A DNA stretch of 44,728 nucleotides, filler included, from Jimgerdemannia flammicorona (Eukaryota), in NCBI GenBank assembly GCA_003990765.1. It is 2 parts of 2 records of this genome, joined end to end, with 100 filler letters (N's around TTAATTAATTAA, not from the genome) between each part and the next. Parts side by side here need not be neighbours in the genome. Positions count along the whole stretch, not along the records: positions 22,416 to 44,728 come from RBNJ01001305.1; 1 more part is not named here. One strand, written 5' to 3'. Below the pieces are notes generated by a model. That model ran no database searches. It saw only the letters and a list, made by a program, of their open reading frames with translations, and had not been told where the DNA came from. A program made the translations under genes and the position numbers. The stretch's first letter is position 1. The number at the start of each line of letters is the position of its first letter. This document shows, piece after piece, positions 534-40,349 of this stretch.

Positions 534-543
534 TATAAATACC
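534..543 (+). promoter_or_regulatory. Putative LTR TATA box (TATAAATACC)
   Basis: The same TATAAATACC motif occurs at the equivalent position in LTR A copy 2 (26851-26860, minus), LTR B (41632-41641, minus) and LTR C (28572-28581, plus). Confidence 0.65.
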
Positions 544-11170: not shown

Positions 11171-11179
11171 ATGAATAGA

Positions 11180-16070: not shown

Positions 16071-16613
16071 CTTAAAAACTATTCAGCCTGAGAAAACTGA
16101 AGTTATTAAAAAGACTAGTGAGTCAAAAGTATTAACTAGAGTACAGGTTAAGTATAGTAGACTTGCTTATAGTAGTAGGCTTTTTTTTAATAAAAGTGTG
16201 ATATTTTTAGCTAACAGTTCCTAAGAACTGTTAGTATTTATAATAGTATAGGATAGATTTTTAATTTCTAGTCTTTTTTCTCATATATACTATATAGTAA
16301 TATAATAATACTTATTTCAACCCCTCTCATATTCTTAGATAACTTAGGTAATAAGATATTACTTAGGAACTTGATATATATATATATATATATTAAAAAG
16401 TCTTTTAATTGTTCTTTTACTTTATTATATTTATTAAAATTGAGAAAGTATAGTTTCTTTATAATAAAATAAAGATGTTATTCTTCTTTAGTAATAATAG
16501 TTACAAGGAATATATTATTGCCATGTCTTCATGCCTTTCTCCACTACAATTCACATTATACACACTTTTACAACATACTTTCAACTTGTTTATTAGAGAA
16601 AGATATTAAGGCA

Positions 16614-18650
16614 ATGTCAACCAGCAAGTAAGCTGATGTGCATACTAGGTCAGATGGACCTGGGGCCTTCAACTGACAGTATGTCAGGAGAGGGTATGGG
16701 CTGGGGATGGAGTCTTTCAGTGGCTCAAGAGGACAGGACAGCTTGGGCAGTAGAGACAGTGCTGGTGGGGGGGCTGGAGGGCAGCAGGGTAGGAGCTTTG
16801 CAGACATACTAAGGATGGGGGGTTGGCCAATGGGAGCCCGCAGTGGACAGGCAGGAGGAAAGGGGAAGCAGAAGAATGGAGATGCTGGGGGATGCTGGGC
16901 CTTTGATGGTGGGAGGTAGAGGAAGTGGAGTAGCTGCTGGGGGTAGTGGCAGGACTGCTGATAGTGGCATGATGGCAAATCAGAAAAAAAAAAAGAGATA
17001 TGATAGCTGATGGCCAGGGGGGGCAGGGGTTCCCAATGTAAAAGAGGGATCTGGTAGATAGTGTAATGGGACTGGCAGTGGCCCTGTTGCTCAAGAAGTC
17101 AATCTCAGAGTTCATGGCTACCTTGTGCTTCTGGGGCTTGGCAGTAACAGTGAGGATAGTCCTGGGGCTTATTTTGAAGCAAGTGGCTAGGGTGGCCTCA
17201 GTGAAGTTCTTGAAGGGTCTGGAGGGGGTTGAGGTGGGCTTTGAGGAGGCAGGCCCACTGGACAAGACTCTGAAGACTGGAGTAGTGGTTGGGAGATAGT
17301 GGTCCCCATGGTGAGGTGCTTAAGATGGGACCCCAGGGTGGTGCAGTTTCTAGTGAGGGGGGTGCCCATGGTGACTAAGGAGGAGACTAGGAGGAGGGTG
17401 GAGGAGGTGATGGTAGAGTATAGTAACATAGTAGACATTGGCTTTCAGATGTGAGAGGGGACAACATTCAGGACAGATAATATCAATGTCAGGATTCAGC
17501 TAGCAGAGAAGGAGGCCACAGAGAAGACAAGTGACTTGCCCTTGGTGCTGATGTGGGGGGCCTTTGTCTGTAAGGTATTGAGGGTAAAAGAGAGTGAAGA
17601 GGAGGAGGAGGACTTGTTGGAGGCACTGAAGGAGTTGAGTAGTACTGTGGAGAGGAGGGCAAAAGCCTGGAGGCTGTATGAGAAGTCAACACATCTGGAG
17701 GTTGTAGATGGAAAGTGTATCCATACTGACAGAAAGCAGTGGGAGTGGGTCCAGGAATGTAAGAGGTAGAGAGAGCTGTTGGCAAGTATAACAGAAGGGG
17801 TGAAGAAGAAGTTGGTTGGAGCTGAGGAGTCTGGAGGCATCAAAGCCAGTGTCTGGGCTAGCAAAGGAGGAGAGGAGGTAGAGGCAAAGGAGGCAGGGGC
17901 TGGGAAGATGCTGGATAAGGATCTATATGCTGATGGTACCTTTGAAGTTTGGGAGCAGGAGTTGGATGCCACCCCCCCCCCCCACTTATCAGGAGGGGCC
18001 TGGCTGGGAAGAGAGGGACGATGGAGGATATACTGATGCAGGGGGCCCAGCAAGTACACTTTGGGGTCCCTGATGTGGCAAAAGGGGGCCAGGTAGTGGT
18101 GGTTGGTGAGGATGAGCTGGTGGATGTCCCTGAGGAGGAGTGGAATAAGACTGCCAGTGTAGGAGCTGACACCACAATATTGGATACAGAGTGGCTGGGG
18201 ACTCCAGGAGGGAAGGAGGTGGGCAACTTGTTGTGGATGAGCAAGGTGATGGATAACCTCATGGCAGAGGCATTGAGAGAAGTGGACCTGTGGGTAATGC
18301 CTGAGGAGTATTGGACGCAGATTCTGTACAGTAATGGAGTAGTAGAGGCACTGAAGGTGGAGATTCTTGCAATATTTCTAGAGGAGAAGGGATATGAGGT
18401 TGATGAGGCAAGGAAGGCAGAGCTGGTGGTGGTCGCTGGTGAGCAAGCAGCCTACTATTGGGCAGAGCATCATGGTTTGCAGCTCTGGCAGGAGGCCTGT
18501 CTGAAGTATTGTGAGGACTTTGAGAAGTGAGAAGATGGGGCAATGGTAGAACTTCTGGGAGTGTCGGAGGCATGGGAAGCTGGAGAAAGAGAACTAGCTG
18601 CTGAACATGACTTGGACTTGGTGCAGGAGAAGCTGAATGTGGACTTGTAG
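16614..18650 (+). pseudogene. LINE ORF1 (RRM-like region plus acidic helical C-terminal domain)
   Basis: The ORF-track pieces 17066-17299, 17536-17769, 17779-18036 and 17949-18530 are homologous to ORF1 of the copies at 22695-24612 and 38422-40349. Confidence 0.8.
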
Positions 18651-18681
18651 AGGATGGAATCACGATATATCATTATTCCTT

Positions 18682-21600
18682 ATGAACAGTACAACCAACA
18701 TTTTCTCTTTGAATGTGAATGGGTTAAGGGGCTCTAGGTGGTATAAGAACATTTTTACTTGGCTCAAGAGATTGGAGGCTGATCTTTTTTTACTACAGGA
18801 TGTTTGGTGTAAGGATGAGGATAATCGGGTTGAGTGGACTAGAGAATGGGGTGGGGCTACTGCTTGGTTTGGAAAAGTGGTGATTCTGGTGAGGAAGGGT
18901 AGAGGAGACTTGGGGGAATCAGGAGCTGGGGTGATCGCTTGGTCTGGGGAGATTGGCATTGGCCAGGGTGGGAATCAGTGAAGGTGGACTCTTGCTACTG
19001 CTAGGCAGCTAGGGGTGAGAGAACTGTGTGGATTAGGGAGCTGCTGGAGGAGGGTATTCTCTTGGAGGAAGGGGTTGATGTTCTCAGTGGGGACTTTAAT
19101 ATGATTCAGGATCAGCATCTGGATAGAACTGATGGAGGGAGGAGTGCAGGGGGGAGAAGTGGAGGTCTGGATGCATGGGAGGAGATGGAGAAGTTGAGCT
19201 CCTTGGGGGATATGGGCAGAACATGGTGGGGTGATACCAGGGTCTACACACATTGGGTGAATGGCTTGGATACAAGGATTGACTGAATTCTGACAGCAGA
19301 GTACTGGGGTTCAGATGTTTGGAAGGCATTGGAGGTAGAGTGGTGCCCATAGTCTGATCACTGGGGACTGTTGGGGCAGGGGCAGTTTGGAGGAAGTGGA
19401 GATGGACCTGGACATTGGTGCCTTAACTCCTCCCTGCTGGCTGAGAAGGAGTTGTGGAAATCATGAGTGGAGGACATTCAGGTAAAGGTTTCTATCTAGA
19501 GGCATGAGGGTTTATCTGTGAATATCTATTGGATGAGATTGAAAGAGGCTGCAAGGGTCTATTGGGGAGGGGCTGGTAGAGAGGCTGGGAGATGGAGGAG
19601 GAAGTACATGGGGTGTGCTTCCAGCAGGTTGAGGAGACTATAAATAGATTGGGTGGATTTGCTCACTGCTGATGGAGTGGAGGACTGGAGGATAGAGAGG
19701 GCGAAATTGAAGATAGTGGAACTACAACAGGTGTTGAGAGAAGAGGAGGAGACTCATATGTGAGATATGGCTGCTAGGCTATGGTGGCAGGAGCTTGAGG
19801 AGGGTGAGTGGCCTACTAGGTACTTATCAAGACTCCTCAAAGCTAGGAGAGTGTGACATTGGTGGGATGGGGTCCTGGGTGCTGATGGGGATATGGTGCA
19901 TGGTATACAACAAATCTTGGGAGTTTTGAAGGAGAGATGGCAGGGTTTGTGGAGTAAGGGAGAAGGGGGTGCTGATGAGGCAGCGATTGCAGATACTCTA
20001 GAGGAGTGGGGGCCACCACAAGTAGCTGGACTGGGTGACTTGATCTTACCAGTGCAAGGAGAGGAGATCCAGAGTATCCTTGCAGCAACTAAACTTGGAA
20101 CAGCACCAGGGGAGGATGGATTGCCATGGGACTTCTGGAAGAAGATGGTAAAGGTCCCCAGAGTTTTGGGTGAGATGGCTGCTCTCTGTGACCATGTTCT
20201 TCAGAGTGGTGAGTGGGTTGGAGAGCAGGACCTTGGGCTGGTAGCCTTATTGTACAAAGACAAGGGGAGGAGGGAAGACTGGAAGAACTGGAGACTGATC
20301 ATGCTTCTGGATATAGACAGGAAGATGGTAACTAAGGTGATTGTCACAAGGCTGCAGAAAGTTGCCCAACAGGTACTGGGGGAGAAGCAGCAGGGCTTTG
20401 TTGGGGGCAGACTTATAAGAGATGGGACTGCATGGGTACATGGTGTCATTAAAGGGGCCCAGACCTGTGGACTGGATGGAAGGTTGGTCTTTTTAGACCA
20501 GGAGAAGGTCTATGACCATGTATGGCAGGTTTGGCTGGGCAAGGTGTTGGATCAAATTAGTATTCCTCCAAGATTTTGAATCTCTATATTGAATCTGTTA
20601 GAGAGCAGTCGGGTGGTGCTGATATGTAATAAATACCATAGTCTGGTATTTTTCTTGGGAAGAGAAGTTCCTCAGGGGGACCCTCTGTCCCCTATTCTCT
20701 ATGCCCTTTCACTGGAGCCATTGATGGATAGGATTTGCCAGAAGGTGGTAAGGCTCTCTATATATGGTATAGTGTAGAAGATGGAGGCCTTTGCTGATGA
20801 CATGGTGGTTGGACTTGGGTCTGTGGCAGATGTAGAGGTACTTAAGAAGACAGTGGAATGGTATGAGGCTCACTCTGGGGTGAAGCTCAACTGGTATAAG
20901 TATGAGACAATGGTGCTAGAGAATAGGCTAGTGGGTGGGGACATCATTGGAACAATTGTCTCTACTGGTGAGGTGGTGTGGTATCTGGGTATCTTCCTTT
21001 CTGTATATGGTTCTGTTTTGCCACAAGTGTGGTGGAAGAGCAGGGTGACCATTTGGGGGGAGGCCCTTCAAGGCTAGAGAGGCCACCATATCTCTCTGGC
21101 AGGGCGGGTGTCAATTCTGAATATATACTGGTTCCCCAAGCTATGGTACATGGCCTATCACCTTGACTTCCCAGCATGGGTGGTGAAGAGACTGACAAAG
21201 GTGGCTAGGGATTGGATTTGGGCAGGGAGGAGGTCCCAGGTCAGTTGGGATACTCTTGCAACACTGGTGGTCAGGGGAGATCTTGGCCTTGTAGATTTCC
21301 CTAAGAGGCTACACTGCTTGTGAGTCTGGTGATTGAAGAGAGCTGCTGAACTGCAGGGTGGGGGTTGGGTGCCTCTACTGCAGAAGGTGTGGGAGATGAG
21401 AACCTCCCCTTGAGGTTCCTCTAGAGAACTGCTCTCTTTGGTAGGGCTGAATGGAAATCAGCAGCTGTGGTTCAAGGGCTTTTGGTGAGGAGTGGTAGAT
21501 GGAGTATACTGAATTGGTCTACACTAGCAAGGTAATGAGAGGGAGGTGATGTGGGGGCCTGATATGTGGTAATGGGATAGACTGCTCCTGGGGGGTGCTC

Positions 21601-22198
21601 TACTTACTATGTTCGATATTGGGAATAGAGTAGAGTATCAGCAGGGTCTTGGCTAAGATCTTTGGCCAAGTGGCTGGCAGGCAGCAGGGATCGGCAAGGA
21701 GTGGGACTGGGCAGATATCTGGTTGTGGAGTGCTGAGGTGTGGAGGTGGCTTCCTCCCAAGTTCTGGGTGGTATGGTGGTGAATGCTGTGGAGGAATATC
21801 ATGTTGAATTTCTATACTGGGTATCTGGAAGATGGTGGCCATTTTGATTATGAGGAGTGTTACAATGTAGGGCAAGCTGGGGGTCTGGTGCAGATGCCAG
21901 AACACTGGCTGGGAGAGTGTGAGGTATTGGGGGACTTCTGGGTAGTAATAGAGAATAGATGGATGTGAGGCAAAGGCTAGCGGGTAAGGGGGGCCACTGG
22001 GAGAACTTGAAATCTCAGCTAGTGGGTGGGGTAGGTGATAGTTGGCTCACTGTAGAGTGGGTGTTAGCAGTGTGGGTGGGACTGGCAGGTCATTGGCTCT
22101 TTGTATTTGAGGAGGGGTGGCAGATGGGACTGCAGGAGAAGGTATTAAGGTGGGAGGAGCTGTTGGGGGATCTGCTGACTGGATGGTGGATTGGTTAG
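18682..22198 (+). pseudogene. LINE ORF2: APE endonuclease + reverse transcriptase
   Basis: IFSLNVNGLR, LFLLQDV, SGDFN, TRID*IL, SDH (endonuclease); APGEDGLP, NWRLIMLLDIDRK, FLDQEKVYDHV, VPQGDPLSPILYALSLEPL, AFADD, YLG (RT); EHWLGEC (zinc knuckle). Confidence 0.93.
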
Positions 22199-22315: not shown

Positions 22316-22415
22316 NNNNNNNNNNNNNNNNNNNNNNNNNNNNNNNNNNNNNNNNNNNNTTAATTAATTAANNNNNNNNNNNNNNNNNNNNNNNNNNNNN
22401 NNNNNNNNNNNNNNN
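22316..22415. other. Assembly gap / artificial contig linker
   Basis: 100 positions: N runs around TTAATTAATTAA (22360-22371), a six-frame stop linker. Confidence 0.95.
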
Positions 22416-24710
22416 CCAATGTCCAATGTCCCCAATGCCCCCATCCCTTTCTGAACAAGAATACACACTTTCCCCCTCCAAACTACTGTACCCCCCCATT
22501 CCTTAGTCCAATCCTATAAGTCCACATCTGCCTCATAATGAACAACCTGCAACAAAAAGTGATCTGCATCCAGGCCCTTAAGCCAACCAAATATATACTT
22601 CCTCCTAGCCACCCCCCATAGCCTATTAATGTTCAGTGAGAATATCCTAGTTGTACTGTTCATATTGAAGAAATGTTGCAACAAAGACCCCAATCTATAA
22701 TTCCATGCTCATCTCATCTCCTGCCAGATCTAAGCGCTGTTCAGCTTCCAAGTCACCCTCTGCAATATCCTGAGCATCCAGTGCCCCCAAGATTTCCTGA
22801 CATTTCACCCTATCCACTTCCTCCATATCTGCCTGGTAGTCCAAGCAGACTGCACGCCACTTCGCCAGTCCCTTTCTCAAGTTCCACAAGAAAAGTGCCC
22901 TGTCACTTGCAATCTTCCTAAGTTTCTCCTCCTGCTGACCATCAACCTGATATTCAATTGACTCCAGGAGGACAGCTAGGATCTCATTCCTTATCTTCCT
23001 TGGCACCTCCTCCCCCCATAGGATCTCCTCCCAGTGCCTCTCCTCTATCACCCAAAAGTCCTCACCACCTAGTTCTTCAGCCACTACCCCTTCCAGGGTC
23101 TTCCACATCCACTTCTCCTCATCCACTACCTCTGCCGCACCCTGAGCAATTCGTCCCCCATCTACCTCAGAGTCCACTAGCATGCTCCTCCTTACTGACT
23201 CATCCCACTCTTCATCTGGTACATCCATCAGCTCCTCCTCCCCCTCTGCTCCATCCGGAACACTATACTGAGGGCACACACCCTCACCCATTTTGGCATC
23301 TGCTTCCAAATTGCCCTCCCTCTCCTCCCCCACTCCAATCTGAGCCCCACTCTGAGCCATCTCTCCCCCCTCAGCCCAGGTGCTTTCCTGCAACCCTGCA
23401 ACTCCCTCCCCTGAGCTTCCACCAGCCCTACTCCCACTCAACTTCGCCAATAGCTCCTTCTGGATCTGCCTCCCCTGCATCTTCTCCCAGGCCCCCTTCT
23501 CCATCCGGACCCTCTTCCCATCTACCTCCCCCACTACTGTCCTGGCCTCAAACTCCTTCCAGGCTAATCTCCTCCTCACAACCACCCCTTTCAGATCCTC
23601 CAGAGCCTCCAACAGGTCCTCCTCCTCCTCTTGAGTCCCCTTCACCCTTGCGACCTTATACTCCACCGGTCCCCATCTCAACGTTGCTGGCCAGTCCCTC
23701 GACTTCCCCATATTCTCCTTCCCAGTCAGCCTCACCCTGACATCAACATCACTAGATCGAAGCTCCATTCCCTCTCAGACCTTGAACCCAACATTGACAA
23801 TCTTGCCATACTCCTGGATTGCCACCACAATCAACTCTCTGGTCCTCTCCTTCGATATGGTAGGGAGATCCAATACCATCAACTATACTACTCGCGGGTC
23901 CCAGTATATATACTGGGCCATAGGGACCATGACCCCACCAACCATCAACCCCTTCTCCATAGCTGCCAATAAGGTGTCTTCCTCCTCAAACCCCACCTCA
24001 ACCCCTTCCTTTCCCCTCAAAAACTTCACCAATGCTACTCCCTTAGCCTCCTGTGTCACTAGTCCCAAAATCATCCTTGCCATCACCACCAAGCCCCGGA
24101 AGTACATTGTGACCACGAATTCTGACCTCGACTTCTTGAGTAATGGGGCCGACACCATGCCTGTCACCCCATCTGCCAGGTCCCCAGGCCTCATGCCCAC
24201 ACCCAGTCCCAAATTGCCAACTGCCATTACATCTGGATTTTTTTGCCAGATCTCCAGTCACAGCCTCATCAACAGTCACATCTCCAGCCCCTACTCCTAC
24301 TCCTCCCCTGCTACCTGAGACTCCCCTGGGTGCACCTCCCTGTCCCCCAGCAGCAGCCATCAATGCCATCCCCAAGCCCAGCCAACCATCAAGGCCTGAG
24401 GCCATCTTGCTCATTCTGACCTTGTCAGCAAAGGTCAACCTCTCCCCTTCTCTCTGCCTCAGCCTGCCCCTCCCTCTACCACCAGGACCTCAGCTAGCCA
24501 TTGAGGCCCCCGGCATCCCCAAACCATCTCCCCTCCTCTCCACCTGCTGCCAGCCAAAGGCGCTGTCACCCCCCTGGCCAGTATGCTCACTAGTTCGATC
24601 ATTGCCATCCATATTGCTAGTCGCTAAATACCAAAAACATAGTAAAAAGTGTTGTCTGAGTCTTGTGTCACCCAAATGTTACCAGTGAAAGATCAACGAA
24701 CAGCGTGACC
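22416..24710 (-). mobile_element. 5' half of a young L1/Tx1-like LINE inserted into a Gypsy element; cut by the gap
   Basis: Closely colinear with ~38140-40425. ORF2 start MNSTTRIFSLNINRL at 22663. Confidence 0.92.
22695..24612 (-). pseudogene. LINE ORF1, best-preserved copy
   Basis: A 357-aa open stretch at 22695-23768 plus upstream pieces (23883-24227, 24043-24438). RRM-like VLDLPTISKERTRELIVVAIQEYGKIVNVGF. Confidence 0.8.
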
Positions 24711-26502
24711 TCTGTGTTTTCTTCATCTCCTTCCTCTATATCTGGTAAGACTCCTTTGTGGACATTGATAGAAACTCATACCTTTCTTCCTCTGTAGTTG
24801 ATCTGCATCTTCTGGGCATTGAGGTCAATGATGGCCTTGGCCTTGTGAAGCCATTGATTGCCAATGAGAATGTCATAGTTGGTGGTGCTTGTAATAATCA
24901 CATCTACTGGGATAGTAGCTCCTCCTATCTTGATGGGGACTTCTCAGATTTTGCCAAGATGGGTAGCTTGTGTACCATCTGCTGTAAATAGACCATCTTG
25001 GTGGACTCTTCAATGTCCCAACCTAGGCAGTCAATTGCCTTCTTGCTCATAAGGCATTCTCGAGCACCAGTATCAATGATGGCATCAAAGATACAGTCTT
25101 TGATCTGGCAGGGGGTATAGGCTGATATCTTGCACTGGTCTTCGGATTCTTCACCTGAGTTCTCAGATTCTTCTTGTGTATTGTGAGATTCTATAATCTT
25201 GTACTCTTGATTCTTGGCAGTAGTTGTAAGTCCTACTCTCAACTGCTGTCTAAAGGCAGGGACTTCAGCTAGCTGCCCAAAAGTAGCATTGACCTTCTGT
25301 TCCTTGAGGTCCTTGTAGATGTCATACTGGTGGATCTTGGTCTTGCACAGCTTCTGTTCCTTCTTGCTCTTGCTTTCTCCTGAGACTGGAGTAGTGCCTT
25401 CAATAATTTGGCAGACAGCTTCGTCTAACTCTATGTCTTGATCAATCTCCTTGGGTTAGGTCTTGCTTTGAATAGTGACAGCTGGAGTCTTCTTTGGTCT
25501 TCTAACTGGCTTGCTATTGCTCTTCTTGTCATAGGGCTTGGACTGGGTTCTGGTACCTTCAGTAGCAGGGTAGAATTTGAACTCCTCGTAGTATTCTTTG
25601 TCATCAGTATCACTGATCTCCTTGATGACTACTGCATTGGCTTGTTCTCTGGTTCTGCTAGCATTGCTTGGTTGGGCTTTGCATCTCATTTCGGTCATGC
25701 AACTCTTTGCATAGTGGCCTTCTTCTCAACATCTGAAGCATGTGATATTATGTTCTTCTGTAGCAGCTGCAAATCTCTGCACTGGTCTCCTGTTGGCACT
25801 TTGGACTTCTCTAACAACATCACTGAGATATGCAGTCATCTCAGCAAACTGCTTGACAAGTTCTTCCACTGGGTCAGCTTTGGCTGTCTTGGGGGTAGGT
25901 GGGGTTGGTTGTCTGTTTACAACTGTGGCAGGTAAGATACTAGTTGGCTTTGATAGCTCCATCTTGATGCCAGTTATTTTCTCTATTGAGTGTTCAGCAG
26001 AGTGTCTGGCAGTCTAATATCTCTGTACAAAGACCACTTTCTGATCAAGAGTCAGTGCAGCTGGGGTAGACTGGATTGCTAGGGCAATTTCAGGGTGAAC
26101 TCGTTTGAGGAAGATTGAATCTGCTATTTGTTCCTTGAGGCAGTCATCTGAGCCAGCTGAGACAATCTGGTGGCAGATTCGGGTATAGAATGAGTTGGGA
26201 TCTTCACTAAGTCCCTGGCAGATAGTATTGAGTTGATCCTTGAGAGCTTGCTTGATCTCTTTGGTATAATATGTTGTTCTGAGGATGACCTTCATGTTGG
26301 TAAGTTTGACTGCATCAGTACCAGCAATGGTGGCTGCATTAAACTTGTCTCTGGCAGGTCCTCTGAGACTGACTGGTAGAAGGGCCAATTGAGCATCTAC
26401 ACCTAGGGCTTGTATGGTGGCAAATTGTTCAAAGTCTTCAATGAAGGTCAGGATTGACTCTTCAGTAGTATATCCATAGAATGTGGGGGGATACATTTCC
26501 AT
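24711..26502 (-). pseudogene. Ty3/Gypsy gag-protease (truncated before RT)
   Basis: Gag MEMYPPTFYG...FIEDFEQFA...LRGPARD...ICQGLSEDPNSFYTRI; CCHC knuckle CFRC*EEGHYAKSC (~25700-25745); aspartic protease AIIDTGARECLMS (~25045-25085) with downstream YDILIGNQWL. Confidence 0.9.
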
Positions 26503-26602
26503 CTTATCTTGAATTCTTACAGGGATGACTCTTGTAGTCAGGGTAGTTGTTGTGGGGGTTATTCGTTTTTCAGCTTGAAAGTGAGGGATTCATCTTGAAT
26601 CA

Positions 26603-26619
26603 CCAGCCAATAGGTACCA
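26603..26619 (-). promoter_or_regulatory. Putative primer-binding site TGGTACCTATTGGCTGG
   Basis: Begins with TGG 3 nt after the LTR end and lies before gag. It is absent after the other LTR A copy. The cognate tRNA is not assigned. Confidence 0.65.
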
Positions 26620-26622
26620 AGT

Positions 26623-28151
26623 TGTCATGTAGTGGTCGCTGAGTCCTTCAAATATGCCAGATTCTCTTCAAGGTGTATCTCTTAGACTAACTCAAGTTGT
26701 TATAAGCAAGTTCTTATTGGAGTGCCTTCCTAAGGTCTTATAGTCCTCAAACTTCTTATCTTTTAACTGTCTTGTTATCTCTTAGATTGCTTGCAAGAAA
26801 GTGTGTATAAGTGAAACTGGAACTGACTTTATTTTAGAGGAAATAAGAGGGGTATTTATACAAAATATAATTCAATGGTTGCTAAGATATAAAGCTAAAT
26901 ATAAATTTCAATAACTAAAACTACTAAGTTCCAGGGCTAGCATTATTTAGCATCACATCAAAATGCTGGTGCTGGAATAATTTCACATCACCTCAGAATA
27001 CTGGTGCTGGCATTATCCAGTATTATATGAGAATACTAGTGCTGGCATTATCCAGTGTAATACAGAACTCAAAGCAGAAAGTTAAGGACTATGGGAGCTT
27101 CATCCTCATCATCATCATCACTGAAGGAGATGAGATCCACAAATTTGTCATGCAGGTCATGTGTTTTGTGTCCGTCGCATGCTTTGGGTATGTCATGTGG
27201 GATGATGTCATCACCAATAACGTCATCACATTTGGCTGTGGTAGGAAAATCAGGAACAAGATCTGGAGCTCTCTAGTCTATGAGGTTCTCTTCCACAAAG
27301 TAGGAAACAAATGTGGGGTCTTGGGGAGGTCTAACCTGGATGCTTGGACCTTGGAATACTGAGATCAATCCTTGCAGGAATTAGTCTGGGTTGTCCTGAA
27401 GGATAGGGTACCAGAAGTCTTCTACTTCTTCACTGTTGAGGGTGATAGTAGACCAAGCTTCTGTAGCCACTCTGGCTTCTAGTACATTGATATGGCAGGA
27501 TGATAGATCTCTGAAGTCTGAGACTCTAACATACTCCAAGTTGGGGATCGACCATGGTACATGCCTGAAGATCTGATGGATCTTCTTAGCTGTCCTTGTT
27601 TCGCGTATATATATCCATGAGAGTGGCATCTTGTAGCTCTTGGGTACTGGCTTGTAGGAACTCTCAGTAGAGGAGGTTTCCTATTTCATACTCCTGCCAC
27701 ATTTGGAGGTATTTGGTAGCAATAGTGATCCTTGTTTCCATTTCACAGCAGTAGAGAATGAAGTGATAAGGGTCTGCAGTATCCAGGTTAACACTAGGAG
27801 TCCTTCTTGAGCAGGTCCTCATGACTCTTCTGATGTCTTGGAACATCCTTTCCTTGACCGAGATACCTTGGTGATTCCTTGATCTTGAGGTTTGGTGGGC
27901 AGCAGGCATTTCATTTGTAGTAAGTCTTTGAGCTATTTTGGGATTGGTGGTTCTTGTTAGTTGCTACTACTGTAATTCCTTGATCCTTCTTTTATATTCT
28001 TCAGGATGCTTGTGCTGTGGTCACAATGACTCACAGTTGGTCATCATTGCTCATCTCATATGCTGTATGATCTTCTTGTGTTCCGATCTGGTGGCTTGTA
28101 AGGAAAGACTGTCTCCAGTGCTGATGTCATCATTCTGAAGTCACTATTATA
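26623..28151 (-). mobile_element. 5' LTR (family A, ~1529 bp) of the Gypsy element
   Basis: Starts TATAATAGTG (TG->TA decayed) exactly where LTR C homology is interrupted and ends CACTACATGACA, followed by PBS and gag. No polypurine tract or internal boundary seen between the ORF and the LTR end. Confidence 0.82.
27069..27909 (-). pseudogene. LTR-A-encoded ORF (~280 aa), unknown function
   Basis: Runs from ATG 27909 to TGA 27069. Lesions: TGA 27664-27666, a frameshift in the TA run near 27606-27614, TAA 27381-27383 and TAG 27273-27275 (TGG in the copy at 1-288). Confidence 0.8.
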
Positions 28152-28875
28152 CTATCAATAAGCAACTCTTAGCAAAGCTAAGCAACTGTTCAATCTATTT
28201 ATTAACAACTATATTTATATCATTGCAAAAAGGTTATATATTCTTTTTTGTACTCAACCTTAAGTTCTTAATCACCTCTATAGAGTATCTCCTGAGAATA
28301 TTATTAATTTGACTAATAAATACTAGAGTATCACTACTTTTCAAGAAGTTCAATATACAGCCCTCTAGTTTGATGAGTATCTAGAATTCAGTATTAACTT
28401 TAATGAGTAGATTCTGATAAAAAAGAAAAAGATATAATTGTTTATTATATATTAATAAGCCACTGAAATTTCTAATAGAAATTTTAATAAGTAGTTATAA
28501 GTACTATATAATATAACTATATATATATAAATATATCCAATATACTGTATTTAGTCATAACTTGGAATCTGTATAAATACCCTCTATAGTGAGTGAGTTA
28601 TAACCTCAGCTCTACTTTTTTCAATATAAGAATAAGGTAATATTCTTATCAAAGAACTCTCAGATCTGATATATTAATAATTCAAAGCCTGATCAACTTA
28701 GAATATAAATATAGTGCCTTTATTAGTATAAAAACCTAAAAGCAATACTTGGACTATACTACTGCAACAAATAATTGGAACTTAGTGCTTTCTTACAAGA
28801 ACTCAGAACTTAGGGCTAATAGTTATCTTGATTATCTACAATGTATTAATTCTATTAGTATATAGTTTTATTATA
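28152..28875 (+). mobile_element. 3' part of a family C LTR, interrupted by the Gypsy/LTR A insertion
   Basis: Reverse-complement match to 8759-9487. The frame from 28153 reads YQ*ATLSKAKQLFNLFINNYIYIIAKRLYILFCTQP*VLNHLYRVSPENIINLTN. TATAAATACC at 28572; ends TTATTATA. Confidence 0.85.
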
Positions 28876-30026
28876 TAATAGCTGTCATATTGCTGGCCTC
28901 AGTGCTGACCTAGTTGGCTGATTATTTTTATTAATATATATCTTACCTAGTAGATCTATGATAATATACTCATAGTTCATAAGTCTTATATTATAATTAT
29001 AGTTATAATATTTATTTCTCAATTCTTTTATTTTTTTTGTAATTTATTACTTTATAAAACTTTAAGTTTATTTCTGAATATAACATTTTGATCAGTAACT
29101 TAATTAGATAAATTTATATAATATCAATACTCTCTTATATAAAATTATAGATACTACTAAGAAAAGAGGTTTTTATATATTTACTACTTCATTACTATCA
29201 GTAATTCATTTGCTGTTACCAAATAAACTTAGATATATATTGATATCTATCCTACCCCTCTCTCACTTCTAACTACCATATATGTCCTACTTTAATACTT
29301 TGTATTTGTGTATTGAGCCAACTATATATAGAGTGAGAATTTGTATTATTCAATCTAATTCAAAATGTTCTTCATAGATATTGGCCAGAATATAGTATAA
29401 AGCTAGATGAAGTTAGATTATATGACTAGTTATGATTAGTTAGTCTATTCAATATCAATATTCTGAAAATTGTGAGAATATTAACATAGTTTTATAAGAT
29501 TTATCTAACTAGTTATTCTCATAATAATATCCTTATTATAAATAATATCTTGTATGTTTCTTATAATTATACCTACTCTGTCAACATTCTTTCCCTCTCT
29601 ATTCTATACATACTCCTCTATTCTACTTATCTACCTCTTATTATTATGATAACATTTACCTTTCTATCTTAATTACTATAGTCTACTATTTATAAGTAGA
29701 GAGTTATTATTATAAATGAAAATATATAAGATATTATTTTTAGTTTAGCTTTTCTCTACTCTCTCCTCCCTCTACATATACTCAGATATATATAAAAAGC
29801 TTCTATATATCTTTGCTCTTTGACTTCCAATTATAGATCTCTAAGATGTTCTATTATTATTATATGTATAGATAAATAAGAGTCTTATAGAGAAATAATT
29901 ATAAATATATCAATTGGTCTAATGTGAGATATAATTGCAAACCTTATATAATGAAATGTTAAAGATCCAAAAACTACTATTTTGATAATGAGTTTTTAGT
30001 ATGTAATAAAGATATATATATTAGTA

Positions 30027-30052
30027 ATATATATATATATATATATATATAT
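30027..30052. repeat. (TA)n microsatellite at the 3' end of the old LINE
   Basis: Direct reading. Confidence 0.9.
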
Positions 30053-30749
30053 TTTATAGTCACTTAGACTTCTTTATTACCCTAACATAAATCTATATAT
30101 AATATATAAAGCTACAAGTTTCACTAGCCACCAATAAAGGCATTTCTAAGAAGACACCAATTGTTTTCCTAGAAGAGTATTAACTAATACTGACTTTCTA
30201 CTATACTCTACTATCACTCAATACTAAATGCCCTCAGCTCTCTAAAACAATATTCTATATCTTCTTCACTGTCTCAACCTCCAGCTGCTTCCTCTGATAC
30301 TACTACCCTTATACTATCTCTCAAAAAAGCCATCTCTATCTCTCTATCAATTCTCTAATTCTCATCTATAGAATATCCTCAAAAACCTACTACTAGTATG
30401 AGGTCATCAAGATCTATACTCCTAAAATCTGACCAAGACTACCCCAAACATCACCAACCTCTCCCACCAGATGTCTCTATATTACTACACTGATAGAATC
30501 TCTGGAATAAGCTGCTAAGATATACTCTGATATCTGAACTATCTCTCTATAGAGCTCAGCATATCACTTATAATCCCAACAGCCATCTATCTCCATTCAG
30601 TCCATCTGATAGCACAGTATTACATTCCTCCTCAAAAATCTCCACTATACTACCCAGTATTGAGAGGGTACTACATATCTAATGCAAAGCAGCTATCCAA
30701 TATCAGACCCATCTCTATTTATATATCTTACTAATTCCAGCCATCTGCC

Positions 30750-31347
30750 TAGTGCTCCTAATAAGTCAATTTAATCTAGATTAGATTCAGATTGATTTGA
30801 ATCAACTATTGTTTTGATTTTCAAATTAGACAATTAAATATTTACATCAATAACTCAATGAATAATTATATAATTTTGATGATCTTGGTGTCATTTGAAG
30901 CCCTTAATAAGGCCTATCTAATGATACTAAGAATATTGAAATCAGATCATATATTGCTGAGTTATAAAGGAAAACATCTGAATTACTAATTTTGGAAATT
31001 ATTTGATTTGTTGATTTTGGAAATTTCATCAAATAGATCATTTTTCTTAATATCTTAGCAATGTATAATCCTATTTTAATATTCTTGGTATTATTAGAAA
31101 GGCCTTATTAAGGGCTTTCATATAATACCAAGATCATCAAATATGGATGATTATTTATCGAGTTATTGATATAAATATTTAATTGTCTAATTTGAAAATC
31201 AAAACAATAGTTGATTCGAATCCATCTGGATGGGATTCAAATCCCATTCAAGTTGATCCAGATGGGATTTGAATCCCATCCAAGTTGATCCAGATGAGAT
31301 TCAAATTCCATCTGAATTCTATTCAGATTGACTCATTTAGAGCACTA
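30750..31347. mobile_element. Non-autonomous hAT-type MITE (598 bp), largely palindromic
   Basis: Termini TAGTGCTC...GAGCACTA; 8-bp TSD CATCTGCC (30742-30749) / TATCTGCC (31348-31355); long inverted arms ~30790-30990 vs ~31030-31230. Confidence 0.88.
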
Positions 31348-34300
31348 TATCTGCCAACCAACTAGCCATCTCTCAAGAGGCCATATCCTAGCTCATTTTA
31401 TTGCCTCTACTAAGAAATACTCCTCCAATGATCTATCACTCACCCTGAGTAAATCCAGTCTCCATCACTACTGCTCAGAGTTGACAACCTCCCCAACATC
31501 AGGCCCAGGTATTCTATGGCCAGTCAGACCTCCACAATACTCTACCAGAATCCTTTATTTCACAATCTGTTAACCCTCTCCACTTAGAGCAGTCTTCTCA
31601 TATTTTTCCACTCCTCACCCCTGGGGCAGAATCTGATCTCTCAATTTTCCATCACTAGCCTACCCTATCCTCCCTTACTCAGTTCTATAAGGTGATATCC
31701 TCACCAGCTCTGAAGTGTCTTCAACTATTGCCAAAAGTCCACCAGCCCCAGGCCTCTATTAGTCATCTGTAGAATCAATGACTCTTAGTTAATCTATAGT
31801 TACCTCTTTTGCCACAGCTACTCTTTAACAGCCTTCTTCAACCACTGTACCACCCACTTAGGGAAGTCTAAGTAATATCTCAGATACTACAACTTATGCA
31901 ACCAATATACATTTAAAACCACTACTTGGCCCACCAGAGAGAAATTCCACCCAGATCAGTCTGTCAGTATACTCTTCTATTTCTGTATCATCTCTTATCA
32001 CCACTCTCTTAGCAGAACTGTTTCATATACTGAGAACTAAATTCCAAGATACTAAACAGTCTCTCCAGCAAGCATAACTTACTCAAACCCACTCTCTACC
32101 TCTAAACTAGTACTAAGCTCCAGAGTCTCACATTTTCTTCAGTTCAACTTTACCTCAGCCAACCTCTCATAATGTTCAATTCCTTTCTACAAAATGTCCA
32201 CATCCTCAGTACAACTTAGCCCAACTATTATATTATCTGCAAATGCCCCCAACTTCCAAACCACCTCACCCAAATACAATCTAGTTAGCTGTCTCTTTAG
32301 TTAGGCCAATACCAGTTTCAAGAAAAGAATATAAAAGAGGAGAGAGAGCAGATCTCTCTGTAAAACTCCTCTACCTAAGACAAACTCCAGACCATATCAA
32401 TCATTCATCAGAACTGCTACCTGATAGCCATATACCAAACCCATAAGCCTTTCAATCTCCCCTGCACTGAACCCAGCTTTTCTCAATATAATTTCCAGAT
32501 AATTCTACTATACTCTATCATACACCTTCTCTTGATCCAAGAAGACCATTCTCTCATTAACCTGATAACTCCTACAGTATTCTAAGATATTTTGCATCTA
32601 GGCAGTATTATCATTGATCTGCTGCTCCTTCACAAATTCTCTCTACTCCTCATCTACCAGCCTGCCAATTTATTGCTATATTCTCTCTACCAAGATCTTT
32701 GAGATCAATTCTCTATCCACATTTAATAACATAATTAGCTACTAGTTCTGCTATATCCTCCTATCACTCTTTTCCTTATATAATAAAGATACTAATTATA
32801 AATCACCATTTCCAATCCATCTATCTCCTTTCAGTATACAATTCACTATCTCAATAAGCCAAGCACTAAATTAAGTATAGAATTTCTTCCAAAACTCCCA
32901 AGGCAGCCCATCTTCTCTAGGTGAAAAACTACCCAGCACCTCCTACAGAACTCTCAATATCTCTTCCAGAGATACTCTGCTCATTACAGCAGTACTCATC
33001 TCTGGCAGTGCTACTACTGGCCAGCTCTATACCAAAGAGACAATCCTAACATCTAATACACCATTCTCTCCATCCTCACTATTATCACTCAGAGAGCCTA
33101 TCACTATCTAGAGATCTTCTTAAGTATATCAGCAATGCCAAAGACCTCAACCCCATTCTTTTATAAGACCAACACTTAGCTATACTATACCCTCCTGGCC
33201 TTTAAGATATCAGAAAGATACTTAGTTGGCTGCTCTCCTTTCTCTAACTGCCAGGTCAATAGTTGAGCCAGTAGGTCATTTATTACTCTATTCTCTACCT
33301 CTCTCATATCTGACCATAATTCTATTATCTCCTTAATGAGCTGATGATGAATCTCTCTTGTCAGTATCTCTTTCAACAATTGCAACTACCACTGCAGACT
33401 CTTATCAATCCTCCTCTCCTTGTCCTTCTGCTCCTTTCCAGCCACCTTCCCAATATCCCACTAAGAGACATCTGTTAAGTACTTAAATCTATCCCACTAC
33501 TCTACAACTAATAGCCCTCCATTCTTTTATTATACTACTTCTCTCTTGGCCAAGATCACAAAGTGTTCTCTCTCTATCTACCATCTGAGCAAGACTATAT
33601 AAGGTACCAGTACTCTCTCTCACCTCTTATAGTCTGAAATCTTCCTCACATCTCTACTTTCCAATGATCCTACCATGGGCACCAATATACTTCTACAATG
33701 TTCAATACATTACTCCAATGTTCTGCTACTAGCATCCAGTCAATTCTTGTTCTCACTAGCTCATTACTAACTTAGTACTATCTGGTAAAGGGCTCTGACC
33801 TATCTCCTACTTACAACTGTATACCATCCACCAGCCTCAAACCTTTCTCTGTCTGAAGCCACTGAGAAAGTCTCTGAGAGACAGCTGCATTAGCTCCATC
33901 ATCAGACCTATTTAGTATATGATTATATATTATATTAAAGTCTTCTTCCAAAATGTCCAACCCAATAGCCTCCCAATTTTTCTATACTTACTACTCCTCA
34001 ATCTATTGCTTTTGCTCTCTGCCAACTACTAGTAAGTATGCAGAGTCCACCAATAGTCCATTATCTGCTCCTTTCTTCAATCTACTCCAAACTAGCTAAT
34101 TACTATATATGTTCACATCCACCAGCTCACCCTTGCCAACTCTAACTAGAATACCAACTTACTTATTCCAACCAGTACAACCAAACCATTTCTCACTCCA
34201 CTCCTCATAGTCAATTATATTATAAGCTCAAACATTCTGAAGAAGTGCTACATTATATCTTCTGACCTTCAGCTATCAAAATAAATACCACTGCTTAACC

Positions 34301-34879
34301 CTATCTCTCAGACTACTAATATTGAGTAATAAAATATATAAACTGTTTATCATCAAGAGACAAGTATTTATAAAACTACTGCTACTGTCACTATCTTCTC
34401 AGCCCTGCTCTTGATGATGTTCTGATGTTCTTTACAGTCTACACTCTAGATGCACTCTCAATTCTCACTACTACAAAAAAGGTCCACCTGCTCTGATACT
34501 ACCTTTTGAATATCTATTATTCTGCTATTATCAATCTTATATCTCTCATTCTCTAAGAGGGCAGCTACCATTGCTATTATCAGTTTTGACCTCTGTATCA
34601 CCATATTGAGAAACTCTTCTCAAGCCTCCTGAGATCAATAAAACACATCTACTTTTTTTTTTTTTTTTTTTTATAGTCACTTGGACTGCCCTTTATTACT
34701 GAAGTCTATAGTTCTAACAATACAATGTCACCCCCACCCTCAACCAATGCCCCATAGACCCCACCCTCCCCTCTCGACCTCCCCCTGCCTGAGCACTACC
34801 CAATTACCCACTACTCAAATCCTCCCACCACTCTTATGGGAGATACACTGCACTAAACCCCTGCAGTACCCCCCACCCA

Positions 34880-37800
34880 GTCCCCAACCCCGCCACCAGC
34901 TATTCAAAATGTCCAATAGCAACCATTCCCATCATGCCACCTTGTCCCCAACCCCAACCTGATGCCCTTCCTCAAAAACATAAACCCAATACCCAGCCAA
35001 CCCAACCCACATAGCCAAAGCCCAACCAAGGGTCAGCCATTTGTCTCCAACCCCACCCACCAGTCACTGGCAGAGCTCTCCCTATCTCCCCCCACCCTCT
35101 CCCTCTAAGGCACCCTGCCCTACCCAGTCTATAATACATCTCCAAAACTCCTCTAAAACCTCACACTCACTAAGCCAATGTTCAGGCGTTTGTACCACTC
35201 CTCCCTCCTGGCCAATGTTGAAACAATCCTCACACTCAAATACTCCACCATCTACCAAGTGTCCAGACTGATAGTTCAACATCACATTCCACCATAGGAC
35301 ATGCCACCACACCACCCAGAACTTGGGGGGCAGCCACTGCCTCACCCTTTTGCTCCAAAGCCAGAGTCCATGCCAATCCCACTCCTCACCAATTCCAACC
35401 CTCTGCCAGGCTTCAGGCCACAGGTCTCCACCTAGGTCTCACAGATACTCCAGACCCTCACCAAGCTGAAAGTTCTCCACCAGAACACCACCCAGTAGAA
35501 GCCTGTCTCACCGCCACATCCATGGTCCCCAATCCTCCTTGGCTTCATCACCTTGCCACCGAAGCCCAATTTTCTTAGCGCCATCCACCACCTCTCACCA
35601 GAAGCCTGTAAACTGCATCCTCCTGCTCCCCTCCATGGCCACCATCATGAGCAGGTCACCTGAGTCATCATGTGGGGAGTACCGAACCTCCCACAACCTC
35701 TGCATGAGTGGCACCCACTCCCGACCCTGAAGCTCACTCACCTGCTACAACCACCAAGCTCTCAGACATATAAGCCACTTAGTAAAGTCCACTAAGCCCA
35801 GCCCACCTCTTTCCAAGAGCAGTGTGAGCACCTCCCAATCAACCTGGCTTCACCGCCCTCACCAGATCCATGACCTCGCCATCCTCAACAACCCCTTGAC
35901 CACCTAGGTTGGGAAATCCAAATGATATCCCACATACCACAGCTTCGGCATCTAATACACATTCAGCACCATCACCCTACTGGCTAGGGACATATGCTGG
36001 CCTCTATATTACAGCAGAACATTTCCCACTCCAGAAGCTAATGGTCCCACCATGCCTGGGGAAGAAGAGACCCAAATACCGAGAAGTAGATCTCCAAATA
36101 TTGTACTGGTTCACCAGCTGGTACCACTGTCCCAATGACATCACCCCCAACAATTCCAGCACCTAGCACCAGAGTCTCACATTTGTGCCAGTTTAGTTTA
36201 GCACCAGAACCCCTCTCATACCAGTCCACAGACCTCTGTAACTCCCCCACATCCACCAAGGAGCCCAGCTCGACCACCATATCATCAGCAAAGGCCCCCA
36301 CCTTCCAATTAATCCCTAAAATGTCCAAACCCCCAATCTGCTGCTGAAGTCTGTCCAGTAGAGGCTCCAGGGAAAGGGCATACAATATGGGCAATAATGG
36401 GTCCCCTTGTGGTACCCCATGTCCCAGGGGAAACATCTCCCCCCTGTGGCCATTGATGACCAATGCTGCCTGACTGTCCTCCAGGAGGCCAATTAATGAT
36501 CCTCGAAACCCTGGGGGAATACCGATTTATTTCAACACTCCCTCCAGCCATATCCTCTACACTCTATCATAGGCCTTCTCTTGTTCCAGAAATACCAATC
36601 TGCCATCCATCTCTATTGCCCGGATACCTTCAATCACTCCATGAACCCAAGCTGTTCTATCTCAAATCAACCAACTATCAACAAACCCATGCTGCTCCAC
36701 ACCAAGCACCTGCTGAGTGATTCCTTGCAGCCTCATCACTAAGATCTTTGTCACCAGTTTGCGGTCCATGTTGAGAAGCATAATTGGCTGCCAGTTCTTC
36801 CAGTCCTCTTGCCTCCTCTTATTCTTGTAGAGGCCCCAAGCTCTGTCCCCCAATCCAAGCACCAGACCGAAGAACTCCATCACACATAGCAGTCATTTCC
36901 TCTAGCACCTTGCCCACCCCAGCCATCTTCTGCCAAAAATCCCAGGGAAGTCCATCCTCTCCTGGGGCTGTCCCCTTACACATTGCAGCCACAACTCTGC
37001 AAATTTCCTCACCACTCACCAGATCCTCCAATGCCCTAAGTCTCATTGTAGGGTCTGGGTACCAATCCCCCAGCTGTCTTTCAACATCCAGAGCATCCAT
37101 TCCGCCTTTCTCCTCACTCCATAGATTCTCCCACCAGATTCTCAATAGGCCCAGAATCACCAGAGTCCCCACCACCAGCTCGCTGTTCTCATCCAGAACT
37201 CCCTCCCACTGCTGTTTTGTTTGTCATGCTTATAACAACCACATCAAAAACCTAGTAGGCCTCTCCCCCTCCTCAAGCCCCTGCCACCGCAGTCAGACCA
37301 CCATGCCCTATATCTTCACCTCTTCCTTTCTTTGCAACACTCCTTTAAGCTCCTCTACCTCCTGCCAGATTCTCACAATACACCAATCCATCAAGTCCCC
37401 ATCGTCCTGCACATCTGTCCATCTCTCCATGAGTGCAGCCAGATGCTGCGAGGCCCACAACATCCTCTGCCTTCACTGAGCATACTTTCCTTTCCCTGCC
37501 TCCCTCCAATACCCCTGAGCATTTGCCTTCAATCATCACCAGTGGTCCTCAATCCCAAGGCCTTGTTCCCACCACCTACTAATATTTCCCACCACCTCCT
37601 TTTCCCAACCCTTCCACAACATCCTGTCCTCTAACAAGGAAGAATTTAGCTGCCAATGTCCAGACCCATCCTCATTTCCCCCAAACCTCTCCCCTCCAAG
37701 CAGTCCCCAGTGATCAGACCATGGACACCATACTACTTCCAGTGCCAACCAGACATCTGCTCCCCAACACTCAGCCATCAGAACCCAGTCAATCCTGGAG

Positions 37801-38390
37801 CCCAGCCCTGCCACCCAGTGGGTGTATGCCCACCATTTGGCCCAAAAATGTCTTCCCGAGTCCACTAAAGCACACAATCTCTCTGTCTCTATCCAGTCCC
37901 CCAACCCACCACTTTCGCTCCGCATGCCTCTCCCTCCATCTGTTCTATCCATCTCCTTATCCCATATCATATTGAAGTCACCCCCCATACAGTCCAGCCC
38001 AACTTCCCCCAATACACCAGCCTCTTTCAATCCGTGAATCCAATCCACCCTCTCCCCTCTCTCAGCTGGGCAGTAACAAGACCCAACTGTCAACAAGCCC
38101 CAACCAGGCCTCCTCCACCTACCCCATACCACCCAAGACCCCCAATGTCCAACGTCCTCAATGTCCCCCATCCCTTTTCGAATGAGAATACACACTTTCC
38201 CCCTCTATACTGCTGCACCCCCCCATTCCTTAGTCCAATCCTGTAAGTCCACATCTGCCTCATAACGAACATCCTGTAACAAGAAGAGGTCCACATCCAG
38301 TCCCTTAAGCTATCCAAAAATATACTTCCTCCTAGCTGCCCCCTGTAGCCCATTAACATTCAACGAGAATATCTTAGTTGTACTGTTCAT
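34880..38390 (-). pseudogene. LINE ORF2 (APE + RT + CCHC); 3' end approximate
   Basis: LFLLQDVR, MGGDFN, SRIDWVL, WSDHW, APGEDGLP, VPQGDPLLPILY, AFADD, CEDC..EHWLSEC. Confidence 0.9.
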
Positions 38391-38421
38391 ATTGAAAAAA
38401 TGTTGCAATAGAGACCCCAGC

Positions 38422-40349
38422 CTAGAATTCTATGCTCATCTCATCCCCAGTCAGATCCAAGCACTGTTCAGCTTCCAAGTCACCCTCCACATTAGCCTGA
38501 GCATCCAGTGCCTCCAAGATTTCCTGGCATTCCACCCCATCCACTATCTCTATATCCAACCAGTAGTCCAAGCAGACTGCATGCCACTTCTCCAGTCCTT
38601 TTCTTGCATTCCACAAGAAAGTTGCCCTATCACTCGCAATCTTCCTAAGTTCCTCCTCCCACTGATCATCAACTTAATATTTAACCAACTCCAGGAGGAC
38701 AGCTAGGATCTCATTCCTCATCTTCCTTGGCACCTCCTCTCCCTGAAGGATCTCCTCCCAGTACCTCTCTTCCATCACTCTGAAGTCCTCACCCCCCAGT
38801 TCTTCTACCACAACCCCTTCCAGGGTCTTCCACATCCACTTCTCCTCATCTACAGCCTCCACTACACTCTGAGCAATTTGTCCCCCATTTACCTCAGGTT
38901 CCACCAGCATGCTCCTCCTCACTAACTCATCCCATTTCTCATCTGGCACATCCAGCAGCTCCTCCTCTCCCTCAGCTCCACCCGGGACACTATACTGAGG
39001 GTACACACCCTCACCCATTTTGGCATCTGCCTCCAAATCACCTTCCCTTTCCACCCCCACTCCAATCTGCATCTCACCCTGGGCCATTTCTCCCCCCTCA
39101 GCCCAGGTGCTCTCCTACAACCCTGCAACTCCCTCTCCTGAGCTACCACCAGCCCCACCCCCACCCAACTTCGCCAGCAGCTCCTTCTGGATTCTCCTCC
39201 CCTGCAACTTCTCCCAGGCCCCCTTCTCCATCTAGACCCTCTTCCCATCCACCTTCCCCACCACCATCCTGGCATCAAACTCCTTCCAGGCCAATCTCCT
39301 CCTTGCAACCATCCCTTCCAGATCCTCCAGTGCCTCCAATAGGTCCTCCTCCTCCTCCTGGGTCCCCTTCACCCTTGTGACCTTACACTCCACCTGTCCC
39401 CACCTCAGTGCCACTGGCCAGTCCCTTGACTTCCTCATATTCTCCTTCTCAGCCAGCCTCACTCTGATATTGACATCACCAGTCCTAAGCTCCATGCTCT
39501 CCCAGACCTTGAACCCAACATCTACAATCTCTCCATACTCCTTGATCACCTCCACAACCAACTCCCTGGTCCTCTCCTTTGACACAGTAGGGAGATCCAA
39601 TACTGTCAACTATACCACTCAGGGGTCCCAGCACATGCACCAGGCCATAGGGACCACAACCCTGCCAACCATCACCCCCTTCTCCATGGCTGTCAACAAG
39701 GCATCTTTCTCCTCAAATCCCACCTTGACCCCTTCCTTTCCCCTCAAAAACTTCACTGATGCAGCTCCCTTAGCCTCCTGTGCCACCAGCCCCAAAATCA
39801 TCCTTGCTGTTACTGCCAAGCCCTGGAAGCACATCATGACCACGAATTCTGACCTCGACTTCTTGAGTAATGGGGCCGACACTATGCCTGTCACTCTATC
39901 TGCCAGGTCCCTGGACCTCATGCCCACTCCTAGTCCTGAATTGTCAACTGCCGTCACATCTGGATTTTTGGCCAGATCTCCAGTCACAGTCTCATCAATA
40001 GTCACATCTCTAGCCCCTACTCCTGCTCCTCCCCTGCCACCTGAGACTCCCCTGGATATACCTCCCTGTCCTCCAGCAGCAGCCATCGATGCCTTCCCCA
40101 GCCCAGCCAACCATCTAGGCCCAAGGCCATCTTCTCCATTTGGACCTTGTCAGTGAAGGTCGACCTCTCCCCACCTCTCTGCCTCAGCCTGCCCCTCCCT
40201 CTACCACCAGGACCTTAGCTAGCCATCAAGGCCCCCAGCATCTCCAAACCATCTCCACTCCTCCCTACCTACTGCCAGCCAAAGGTGCCAGCACCCCCCT
40301 AGCCAGTATGCTCACCAGTTTGATCATTGCCATCTATGTTGATAGTCAT
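38422..40349 (-). pseudogene. LINE ORF1
   Basis: ORF-track pieces 39619-40110, 39232-39609, 38674-39087 and 38422-38616 are closely similar to the 22695-24612 copy. Confidence 0.8.

Follow-up and report, generated by a model that had tools for sequence, protein, structure and literature searches.

Mouse mammary tumour virus (MMTV) carries a superantigen gene, sag, in the U3 of its LTR, and this gene encodes a membrane glycoprotein. In complex retroviruses, transactivators are encoded by 3'-end genes and act on U3 repeats, as HTLV Tax does with 21-bp repeats; foamy virus Tas is a second example. Extra ORFs of LTR retrotransposons usually lie internal to the element, after pol and before the PPT. 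In the available text of two papers, such extra ORFs appear as ORF3, env-like or 'add. ORF' (PMC5408684, PMC2864245). The same available text reports a dUTPase between PR and RT in gypsy elements of basidiomycetes and bdelloid rotifers, the examples being PosPlaTy3-5 of Postia placenta and Juno, Vesta and TelKA of bdelloid rotifers (PMC2864245, PMC5408684). The accounts of dUTPase-bearing gypsy elements contain, in these parts, no mention of an ORF inside an LTR (PMC2864245, PMC5408684). A phrase search for an ORF inside the LTR of an LTR retrotransposon returned no described case, although such a search is weak and misses other wordings and subscription journals.

We analysed a window of 44,728 bases (the whole stretch of DNA under study), which consists of TE-rich, eukaryote-like DNA. 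With a probability of about 0.8, the locus on its minus strand would be the 5' third of a dead Ty3/gypsy-type LTR retrotransposon whose 1.5-kb LTR carries a selected accessory gene wholly in U3. On that strand the LTR (28151-26623) is followed by a TGG-type PBS, a gag with a CCHC knuckle and a DTGA protease. The features of the element are as follows.

27989-27996, minus strand: upstream TATA box TATAAAAG, 80 nt before the gene ATG; GAATATAAAAG is also present in the diverged metagenome locus L001
26623-28151, minus strand: 5' LTR, 1529 nt, delimited by a homology break, the end of copy B and metagenome contigs
27069-27909, minus strand: accessory gene inside U3, decayed, delimited by relatives and frame analysis
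26936-27040, minus strand: 35-bp tandem repeats, 3 copies, between the gene stop and the TATA box
26853-26860, minus strand: main LTR TATA box TATAAATA, inside a 16-nt stretch identical in L001
26828-26833, minus strand: AATAAA, 20 nt after the main TATA box, conserved in L001
26603-26619, minus strand: PBS-like sequence with a TGG start, three bases past the LTR end, by inspection
24928-26502, minus strand: gag with CCHC knuckle and first half of an aspartic protease (DTGA), by Pfam and tblastn, with three in-frame stops
24698-24991, minus strand: second half of the protease in another frame, and end of the element; tblastn match to residues 519-616 of the polyprotein P0008, 42% identity over 98 aa

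A preliminary description of this DNA had listed a TATA box, a TGG-initiated PBS and 35-bp repeats, and all three are present; the TATA box is at 26860-26853, the PBS-like sequence at 26619-26603, and the repeats occur in 3 copies here and in 3.6 copies at 308-432 of a second LTR copy, copy B.

The accessory gene lies in sense orientation wholly between the first base of the LTR (28151) and the promoter, with its ATG at 27909, its stop at 27069 and the TATA box starting at 26860. The preliminary description had given this stretch as an ORF. Its ATG and frame are the true start, because the relatives open with the same MPAA...QTSRSR, but the stretch is not open under the standard code. The frame from 27909 ends after 81 codons, and the frame from 27914 is nearly open over the later part. 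Since the relatives start in the 27909 frame and continue in the second one, the window copy has shifted frame once, near 27615-27606, and contains premature stops at three sites (27666-27664, 27383-27381 and 27275-27273, the latter two in the continuing frame). In copy B, the gene tail (1-285) is open. Nine further database proteins and one metagenome locus are related to the gene, and those shown reach 342 aa. Five proteins of 161-271 aa are 58-80% identical to the gene product (E <= 0.01, among 316 candidates). The metagenome locus L001 (1345 nt) contains an intact 323-aa ORF of the family; window and locus are collinear over 27978 to about 26715, with GAATATAAAAG before the ATG and TGTATAAATACCCCTC and AATAAA behind. 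Viral contigs and prokaryotic genome contigs yielded no relative of the gene family. Judged by these relatives, the accessory gene is a real gene and the window copy a pseudogene.

A non-standard genetic code, suggested by the in-frame occurrence of all three stop codons, was considered and rejected. Only one stop of each kind occurs in about 525 gag-protease codons, glutamine is CAA or CAG throughout, the relatives carry sense codons at the stop sites, and the window copy shows CpG decay.

The kind of decay was apparent when the window copy (copy A) was compared with copy B. Over 730 aligned sites, the two differ by 80 transitions and 18 transversions. CpG dinucleotides number 4 in A versus 24 in B, and 18 of the CpGs of B are TG, CA or TA in A. 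This pattern of mainly CpG-type transitions in the window copy is the kind of decay that a dead, methylated copy would be expected to undergo. The indels that separate A from B within the coding part have lengths divisible by three, and dN/dS between the two copies is 0.24 (codon-threaded, 89 codons). Against L001, a codon-threaded comparison of 274 codons gave a dN/dS of 0.11, with dS saturated. Differences from L001 are most frequent at third codon positions: in the raw DNA alignment, positions 1/2/3 differ at 26/20/40 sites (98 compared for each) in the N-terminal part, and at 37/21/59 of 111/110/111 sites in the middle part. The gene core is the best-conserved part of the LTR in this comparison (65-71% identity to L001, versus 63% in the TATA region and 42-56% in other LTR parts). 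By these codon-level measures, the accessory gene is under purifying selection in live relatives.

This selection bears on a different account of the gene, namely that it is a host gene, or a fragment of one, captured by a single LTR family and useless to the element. Capture would suit an accessory protein that has no retroelement domain and belongs to no Pfam family, and LTR elements are known to capture foreign ORFs (PMC5408684, in the text available). Against it stand the purifying selection on the gene and the make-up of its family. A profile search of 1.84 billion representatives found five proteins at E <= 0.001, all of 138-342 aa and collinear, with identities down to 29% to the family protein P0005, and no longer or differently built relative among them. 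Members at 29-46% identity retain the start, the middle motifs and the acidic tail. L001, the one relative with DNA, keeps its position before the LTR TATA box and AATAAA. We therefore regard capture of a useless host gene as unlikely, and favour a gene that belongs to the element lineage.

We then considered the carrier. The preliminary description had tied the gene to a Gypsy-like element with a CCHC-knuckle gag and a DTGA protease. Both coding features are there: gag starts with an ATG at 26502 and its knuckle matches Pfam zf-CCHC at E 4e-4 with 20.8 bits, exactly at the cut-off; the DTGA motif is present, with Pfam protease matches at E 0.0024 and 0.011 that lie under the curated cut-offs. 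The gag-protease reading frame is broken by stops at 26016-26014, 25728-25726 (within the knuckle) and 25458-25456, and changes frame near 24997-24991. Two database relatives of the gag-protease were found, of which P0008 (1263 aa) is the long one; it was the sole match among 8000 scored candidates (E 2.9e-58, 30% identity over 88% of the query). In tblastn, residues 21-616 of P0008 span 26379-24997, continue in another frame over 24991-24698, and then the match ends. A LINE-like repeat truncates the element at about 24700, and what is left is its 5' part.

P0008 runs from a zf-CCHC knuckle through protease, dUTPase and RVT_1 to RT_RNaseH, with no integrase between protease and RT, and itself ends before any integrase. 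By this domain order, it is a Ty3/gypsy-type pol. Neither RT, RNase H nor integrase of the element was found in the window, either by Pfam in 150 of 154 segments or by tblastn. Since the window holds no RT or integrase, the Gypsy label rests on the gag-protease homology to a P0008-type polyprotein; to this extent the earlier assignment is supported, indirectly. The Pfam scan covered 150 of the 154 stop-free segments of at least 70 aa, all but three past 43,000 and one that extends into the N run. Of these 150, six match a Pfam family at E <= 0.01: one endonuclease and three RVT_1 segments of LINE-like elements, one aspartic-protease segment and one plainly spurious segment. A weak tblastn match to the RT region of P0008 was also seen at 8568-8720 on the minus strand (E 0.03, 31% over 51 aa), which may be a remnant of another gypsy-type element beside the repeat described below as repeat R.

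A carrier from another LTR class (copia, Bel/Pao or retrovirus-like) would equally possess the gag, CCHC knuckle and protease seen in the window, which are common to all LTR classes, and the Pfam protease matches are weak (E 0.0024-0.011). Such a class is at odds with P0008, in which the protease is followed by dUTPase, RVT_1 and RT_RNaseH and no integrase stands between protease and RT, and at odds with the dUTPase between PR and RT reported, in the text available, for basidiomycete and bdelloid gypsy elements (PMC2864245, PMC5408684). We judge it very unlikely and retain a Ty3/gypsy-type carrier.

The other sequences of note in the window are as follows.

28152-28873, minus strand: repeat R, target of the LTR-element insertion, 76.2% identical over 732 nt to a second, uninterrupted copy at 8761-9490 (plus strand)
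1-774, plus strand: copy B, the 3' half of a second LTR (3' or solo), clipped by the window start, on the other contig, 83% identical over 773 nt
22416-24702, minus strand: G-rich LINE-like repeat, 5' part, truncating the element, 86% identical to 38142-40427
22316-22415, no strand: artificial linker N44-TTAATTAATTAA-N44 of the six-frame-stop type, joining two contigs

The linker joins two contigs, so that adjacency across it is not real. Repeat R is an AT-rich sequence of 0.73 kb, called 'LTR C' in the preliminary description, and ends ...TTGATAG on the minus strand, adjoining the LTR. Its homology to 8761-9490 breaks exactly between 28152 and 28151, in agreement with the LTR start proposed earlier. 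Because homology with the flanking repeat breaks there, the first base of the LTR lies 242 nt upstream of the ATG, and the earlier placement of the gene within the LTR is borne out. The LTR end at 26623 (...GACA) is likewise corroborated: copy B ends on the identical base, and one contig of metagenome run X5 diverges at 26623 and continues into 255 unrelated letters. As had been described, no TGG-type sequence follows the shared end base in copy B; unrelated AT-rich DNA follows instead. The LTR termini are TA...CA in the window copy, with a TG start in a less decayed foreign contig. Within the window, we found no second LTR of the element, no PPT and no TSD, and no second copy of the continuation of repeat R past 9490 (the 'missing half' expected earlier).

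LINE-like elements span 11000-22117 (plus strand) and 30000-40427 (minus strand) and also 22416-24698 (minus strand). Their recognised domains are an endonuclease at 18637-18978 and RVT_1 at 19857-20576 and 36041-36892. They show a strong strand bias, the sense strand having 36-40% G versus 13-14% C; in the AT-richer blocks at 11000-16900 and 30000-34900 these values are 25-27% G versus 10% C. GC skew is 0.31-0.54 across about 11 kb on each contig in the LINE-like regions, and 11201-15011 matches 17383-21247 at 66-69% identity.

Metagenome data extended these observations. For the stretch 26400-28300, 21 runs are listed (16 soil metagenomes, 2 coded organism A and 3 coded organism B), each sharing at most 0.24 of the sampled words. 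Contigs from four of these runs (X1, X2, X5 and X9) were aligned to 25900-28900 at 80% likeness. Over the consecutive bins 28021-28121, 28122-28222 and 28223-28323, summed contig depth, which is a poor measure, falls from 1460.6 to 201.4 to 4.24 in X1. The corresponding values are 172.5, 18.5 and 0 in X2, 32.6, 8.37 and 0 in X9, and 64.2, 17.4 and 1.71 in X5. The X1 contigs reach a summed depth of 355.9-933.3 over gag; within the LTR, 14 of the 15 bins have 335.5-2372.6, and past 28223 the values are 1.03-13.2. Depth being a poor measure, we used it for two statements only: that the repeat family would stop at about 28150, and that the gene appears to behave as the LTR does, unlike the flank. 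The sole low LTR bin in X1 (27112-27212, depth 18.1) coincides with the variable tail of the gene. The gene stretch 27112-27260 (minus strand), which separates the conserved IDWR motif from the acidic tail, is, among the relatives, hypervariable in both length and sequence, and nearly all foreign contigs drop out over it.

One X2 contig departs from the window at 28144. Its loose letters equal the next seven bases of the window save for three transitions, and are followed by a stretch of 10 pyrimidines on the plus strand. On the element strand, this contig thus has a 10-purine tract directly before TGTAACGG..., where the window reads TATAATAG... By its letters, the junction in this single short contig, which ends short of the gene, is the canonical PPT|TG of a 3' LTR. 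No LTR start downstream of the gene, between its stop and the TATA box, appears among the 24 of 242 loose ends listed.

That the gene is instead the last internal gene of an upstream element, in a tandem sharing a short LTR that truly starts after the gene near the 35-bp repeats, is extremely unlikely: extra ORFs after pol are common in LTR elements (PMC5408684, in the text available), a single LTR of the element is available, and copy B is clipped by the window start with its 5' limit out of sight, but the repeat family stops where repeat R adjoins it, 242 nt before the ATG, contig cover falls at that LTR start in the aligned runs, a foreign contig has a PPT-like tract directly against 28151, the gene has no pol sequence before it, and depth over the gene bins, though a weak measure, resembles that of the rest of the LTR at about 1.7-3.2 times gag in X1, X2 and X9.

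Our reading of the locus is thus that an element comprising LTR, PBS, gag and protease would have inserted into repeat R and would later have been cut off by a LINE-like element. Its lineage would carry a sense-strand accessory gene of about 270-340 codons wholly in U3. Reverse transcription places a copy of U3 at both ends, so that each complete element would hold two gene copies and each solo LTR one.

Only two sense-strand TATA-box matches occur in the LTR (27996-27989 and 26860-26853), both of which are kept in L001. The upstream one is conserved in this one other sequence only, whose contig begins right there. AATAAA at 26833-26828 is likely the polyadenylation signal, which would be read only in the 3' LTR, since it begins 20 nt past the main TATA box and so probably lies at or before the RNA start. 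From the positions of the TATA box and AATAAA, U3 probably extends from about 28151 to about 26830, and R plus U5 from about 26830 to 26623, which gives a U3 of about 1.3 kb holding the whole gene and the 35-bp repeats. The window contains no tRNA gene and no Rfam family. None of the 21 listed runs containing the 26400-28300 stretch is on record as RNA. In X5, a small run of coded organism A, high-depth short contigs (up to 270.3) cover only the N-terminal part of the gene, 27608-27943. They stop about 30 nt upstream of the ATG, a position compatible with transcription beginning past the upstream TATA box; the RNA status of the run is a guess, and these contigs are not usable as transcription evidence.

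Two routes of expression can be envisaged. By the first, transcription would start from the gene's own TATA box, 80 nt upstream of the ATG, and end at the LTR AATAAA, so that the LTR would be a self-contained cassette; this route would work in either LTR and in solo LTRs. By the second, the gene would be the 3'-most ORF of the genomic RNA and would be expressed from a subgenomic message, as is the U3 gene of MMTV.

The predicted protein matches no Pfam family at E <= 1. P0005 has a net charge of +8 in its first 45 residues and -29 in the remainder, and the acidic tail of the accessory protein ends ...LNFLL. Its maximal 19-residue hydropathy is 0.74, which indicates no membrane segment. AlphaFold2 with 6 sequences gave a mean pLDDT of 35.5 and predicted helices over about residues 18-184. 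Searches of the Protein Atlas yielded no match above noise level (best feature score 0.83, TM <= 0.33; the Atlas model has a pLDDT of 0.35). From these features, the protein looks like a soluble one, with a basic head, a helical middle and an acidic tail, and not env-like. It could be a soluble nuclear regulator of the element's own expression, a tentative proposal with the odds against it. Given no Pfam match and a poor fold model, this function is suggested by composition, and the 35-bp repeats beside the promoter could be the target of the protein. It is doubtful, though conceivable, that the LTR is a portable gene cassette (TATA box, ORF and polyadenylation signal) whose protein is a trans-acting regulator, with either the 35-bp repeats (Tax/Tas-like) or RNA (Rev-like) as its target.

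A conserved, selected gene in U3 would be doubled with each insertion, would outlive the element in solo LTRs and may have its own promoter. Such genes would escape annotation pipelines in which LTRs are masked as non-coding, and LTRs may be the source of short stand-alone 'hypothetical proteins' like those met here in metagenomes. If the LTR were a cassette, each insertion would contain two expressed copies and each solo LTR would retain one, a strategy of complex retroviruses in a non-vertebrate retrotransposon. If the protein were to regulate its own LTR, this would be a parallel to complex-retrovirus transactivators in a retrotransposon of a soil eukaryote.

Compared with known systems, the carrier is closest to the dUTPase-bearing gypsy elements PosPlaTy3-5 and Juno/Vesta/TelKA, which, in the published text available, have the same domain order as P0008, the closest long gag-protease relative. 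It differs from them in that its gag-protease has 30% identity to P0008 and in that the window copy ends before the expected position of a dUTPase. The accessory gene resembles the extra ORFs of LTR retrotransposons in being accessory, lineage-specific and 3' of pol, with functions that are unknown or varied in that group. In contrast to these ORFs, the gene here appears to have the PPT/LTR boundary upstream of it, and would therefore be duplicated with the LTR and survive in solo LTRs. With HTLV Tax and foamy virus Tas, the gene shares a 3'-end location, a basic and acidic protein and tandem repeats immediately before the LTR promoter, a likeness that serves as a working analogy only. The nearest analogue is MMTV sag, with the same position and an unrelated protein. 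Both are sense genes wholly in U3, so that each LTR has a copy and the genomic RNA carries the gene at its 3' end. However, sag is a gene of a vertebrate retrovirus, and its product is a membrane glycoprotein, whereas the gene described here belongs to a retrotransposon without env and encodes a protein without a membrane segment or a Pfam match.
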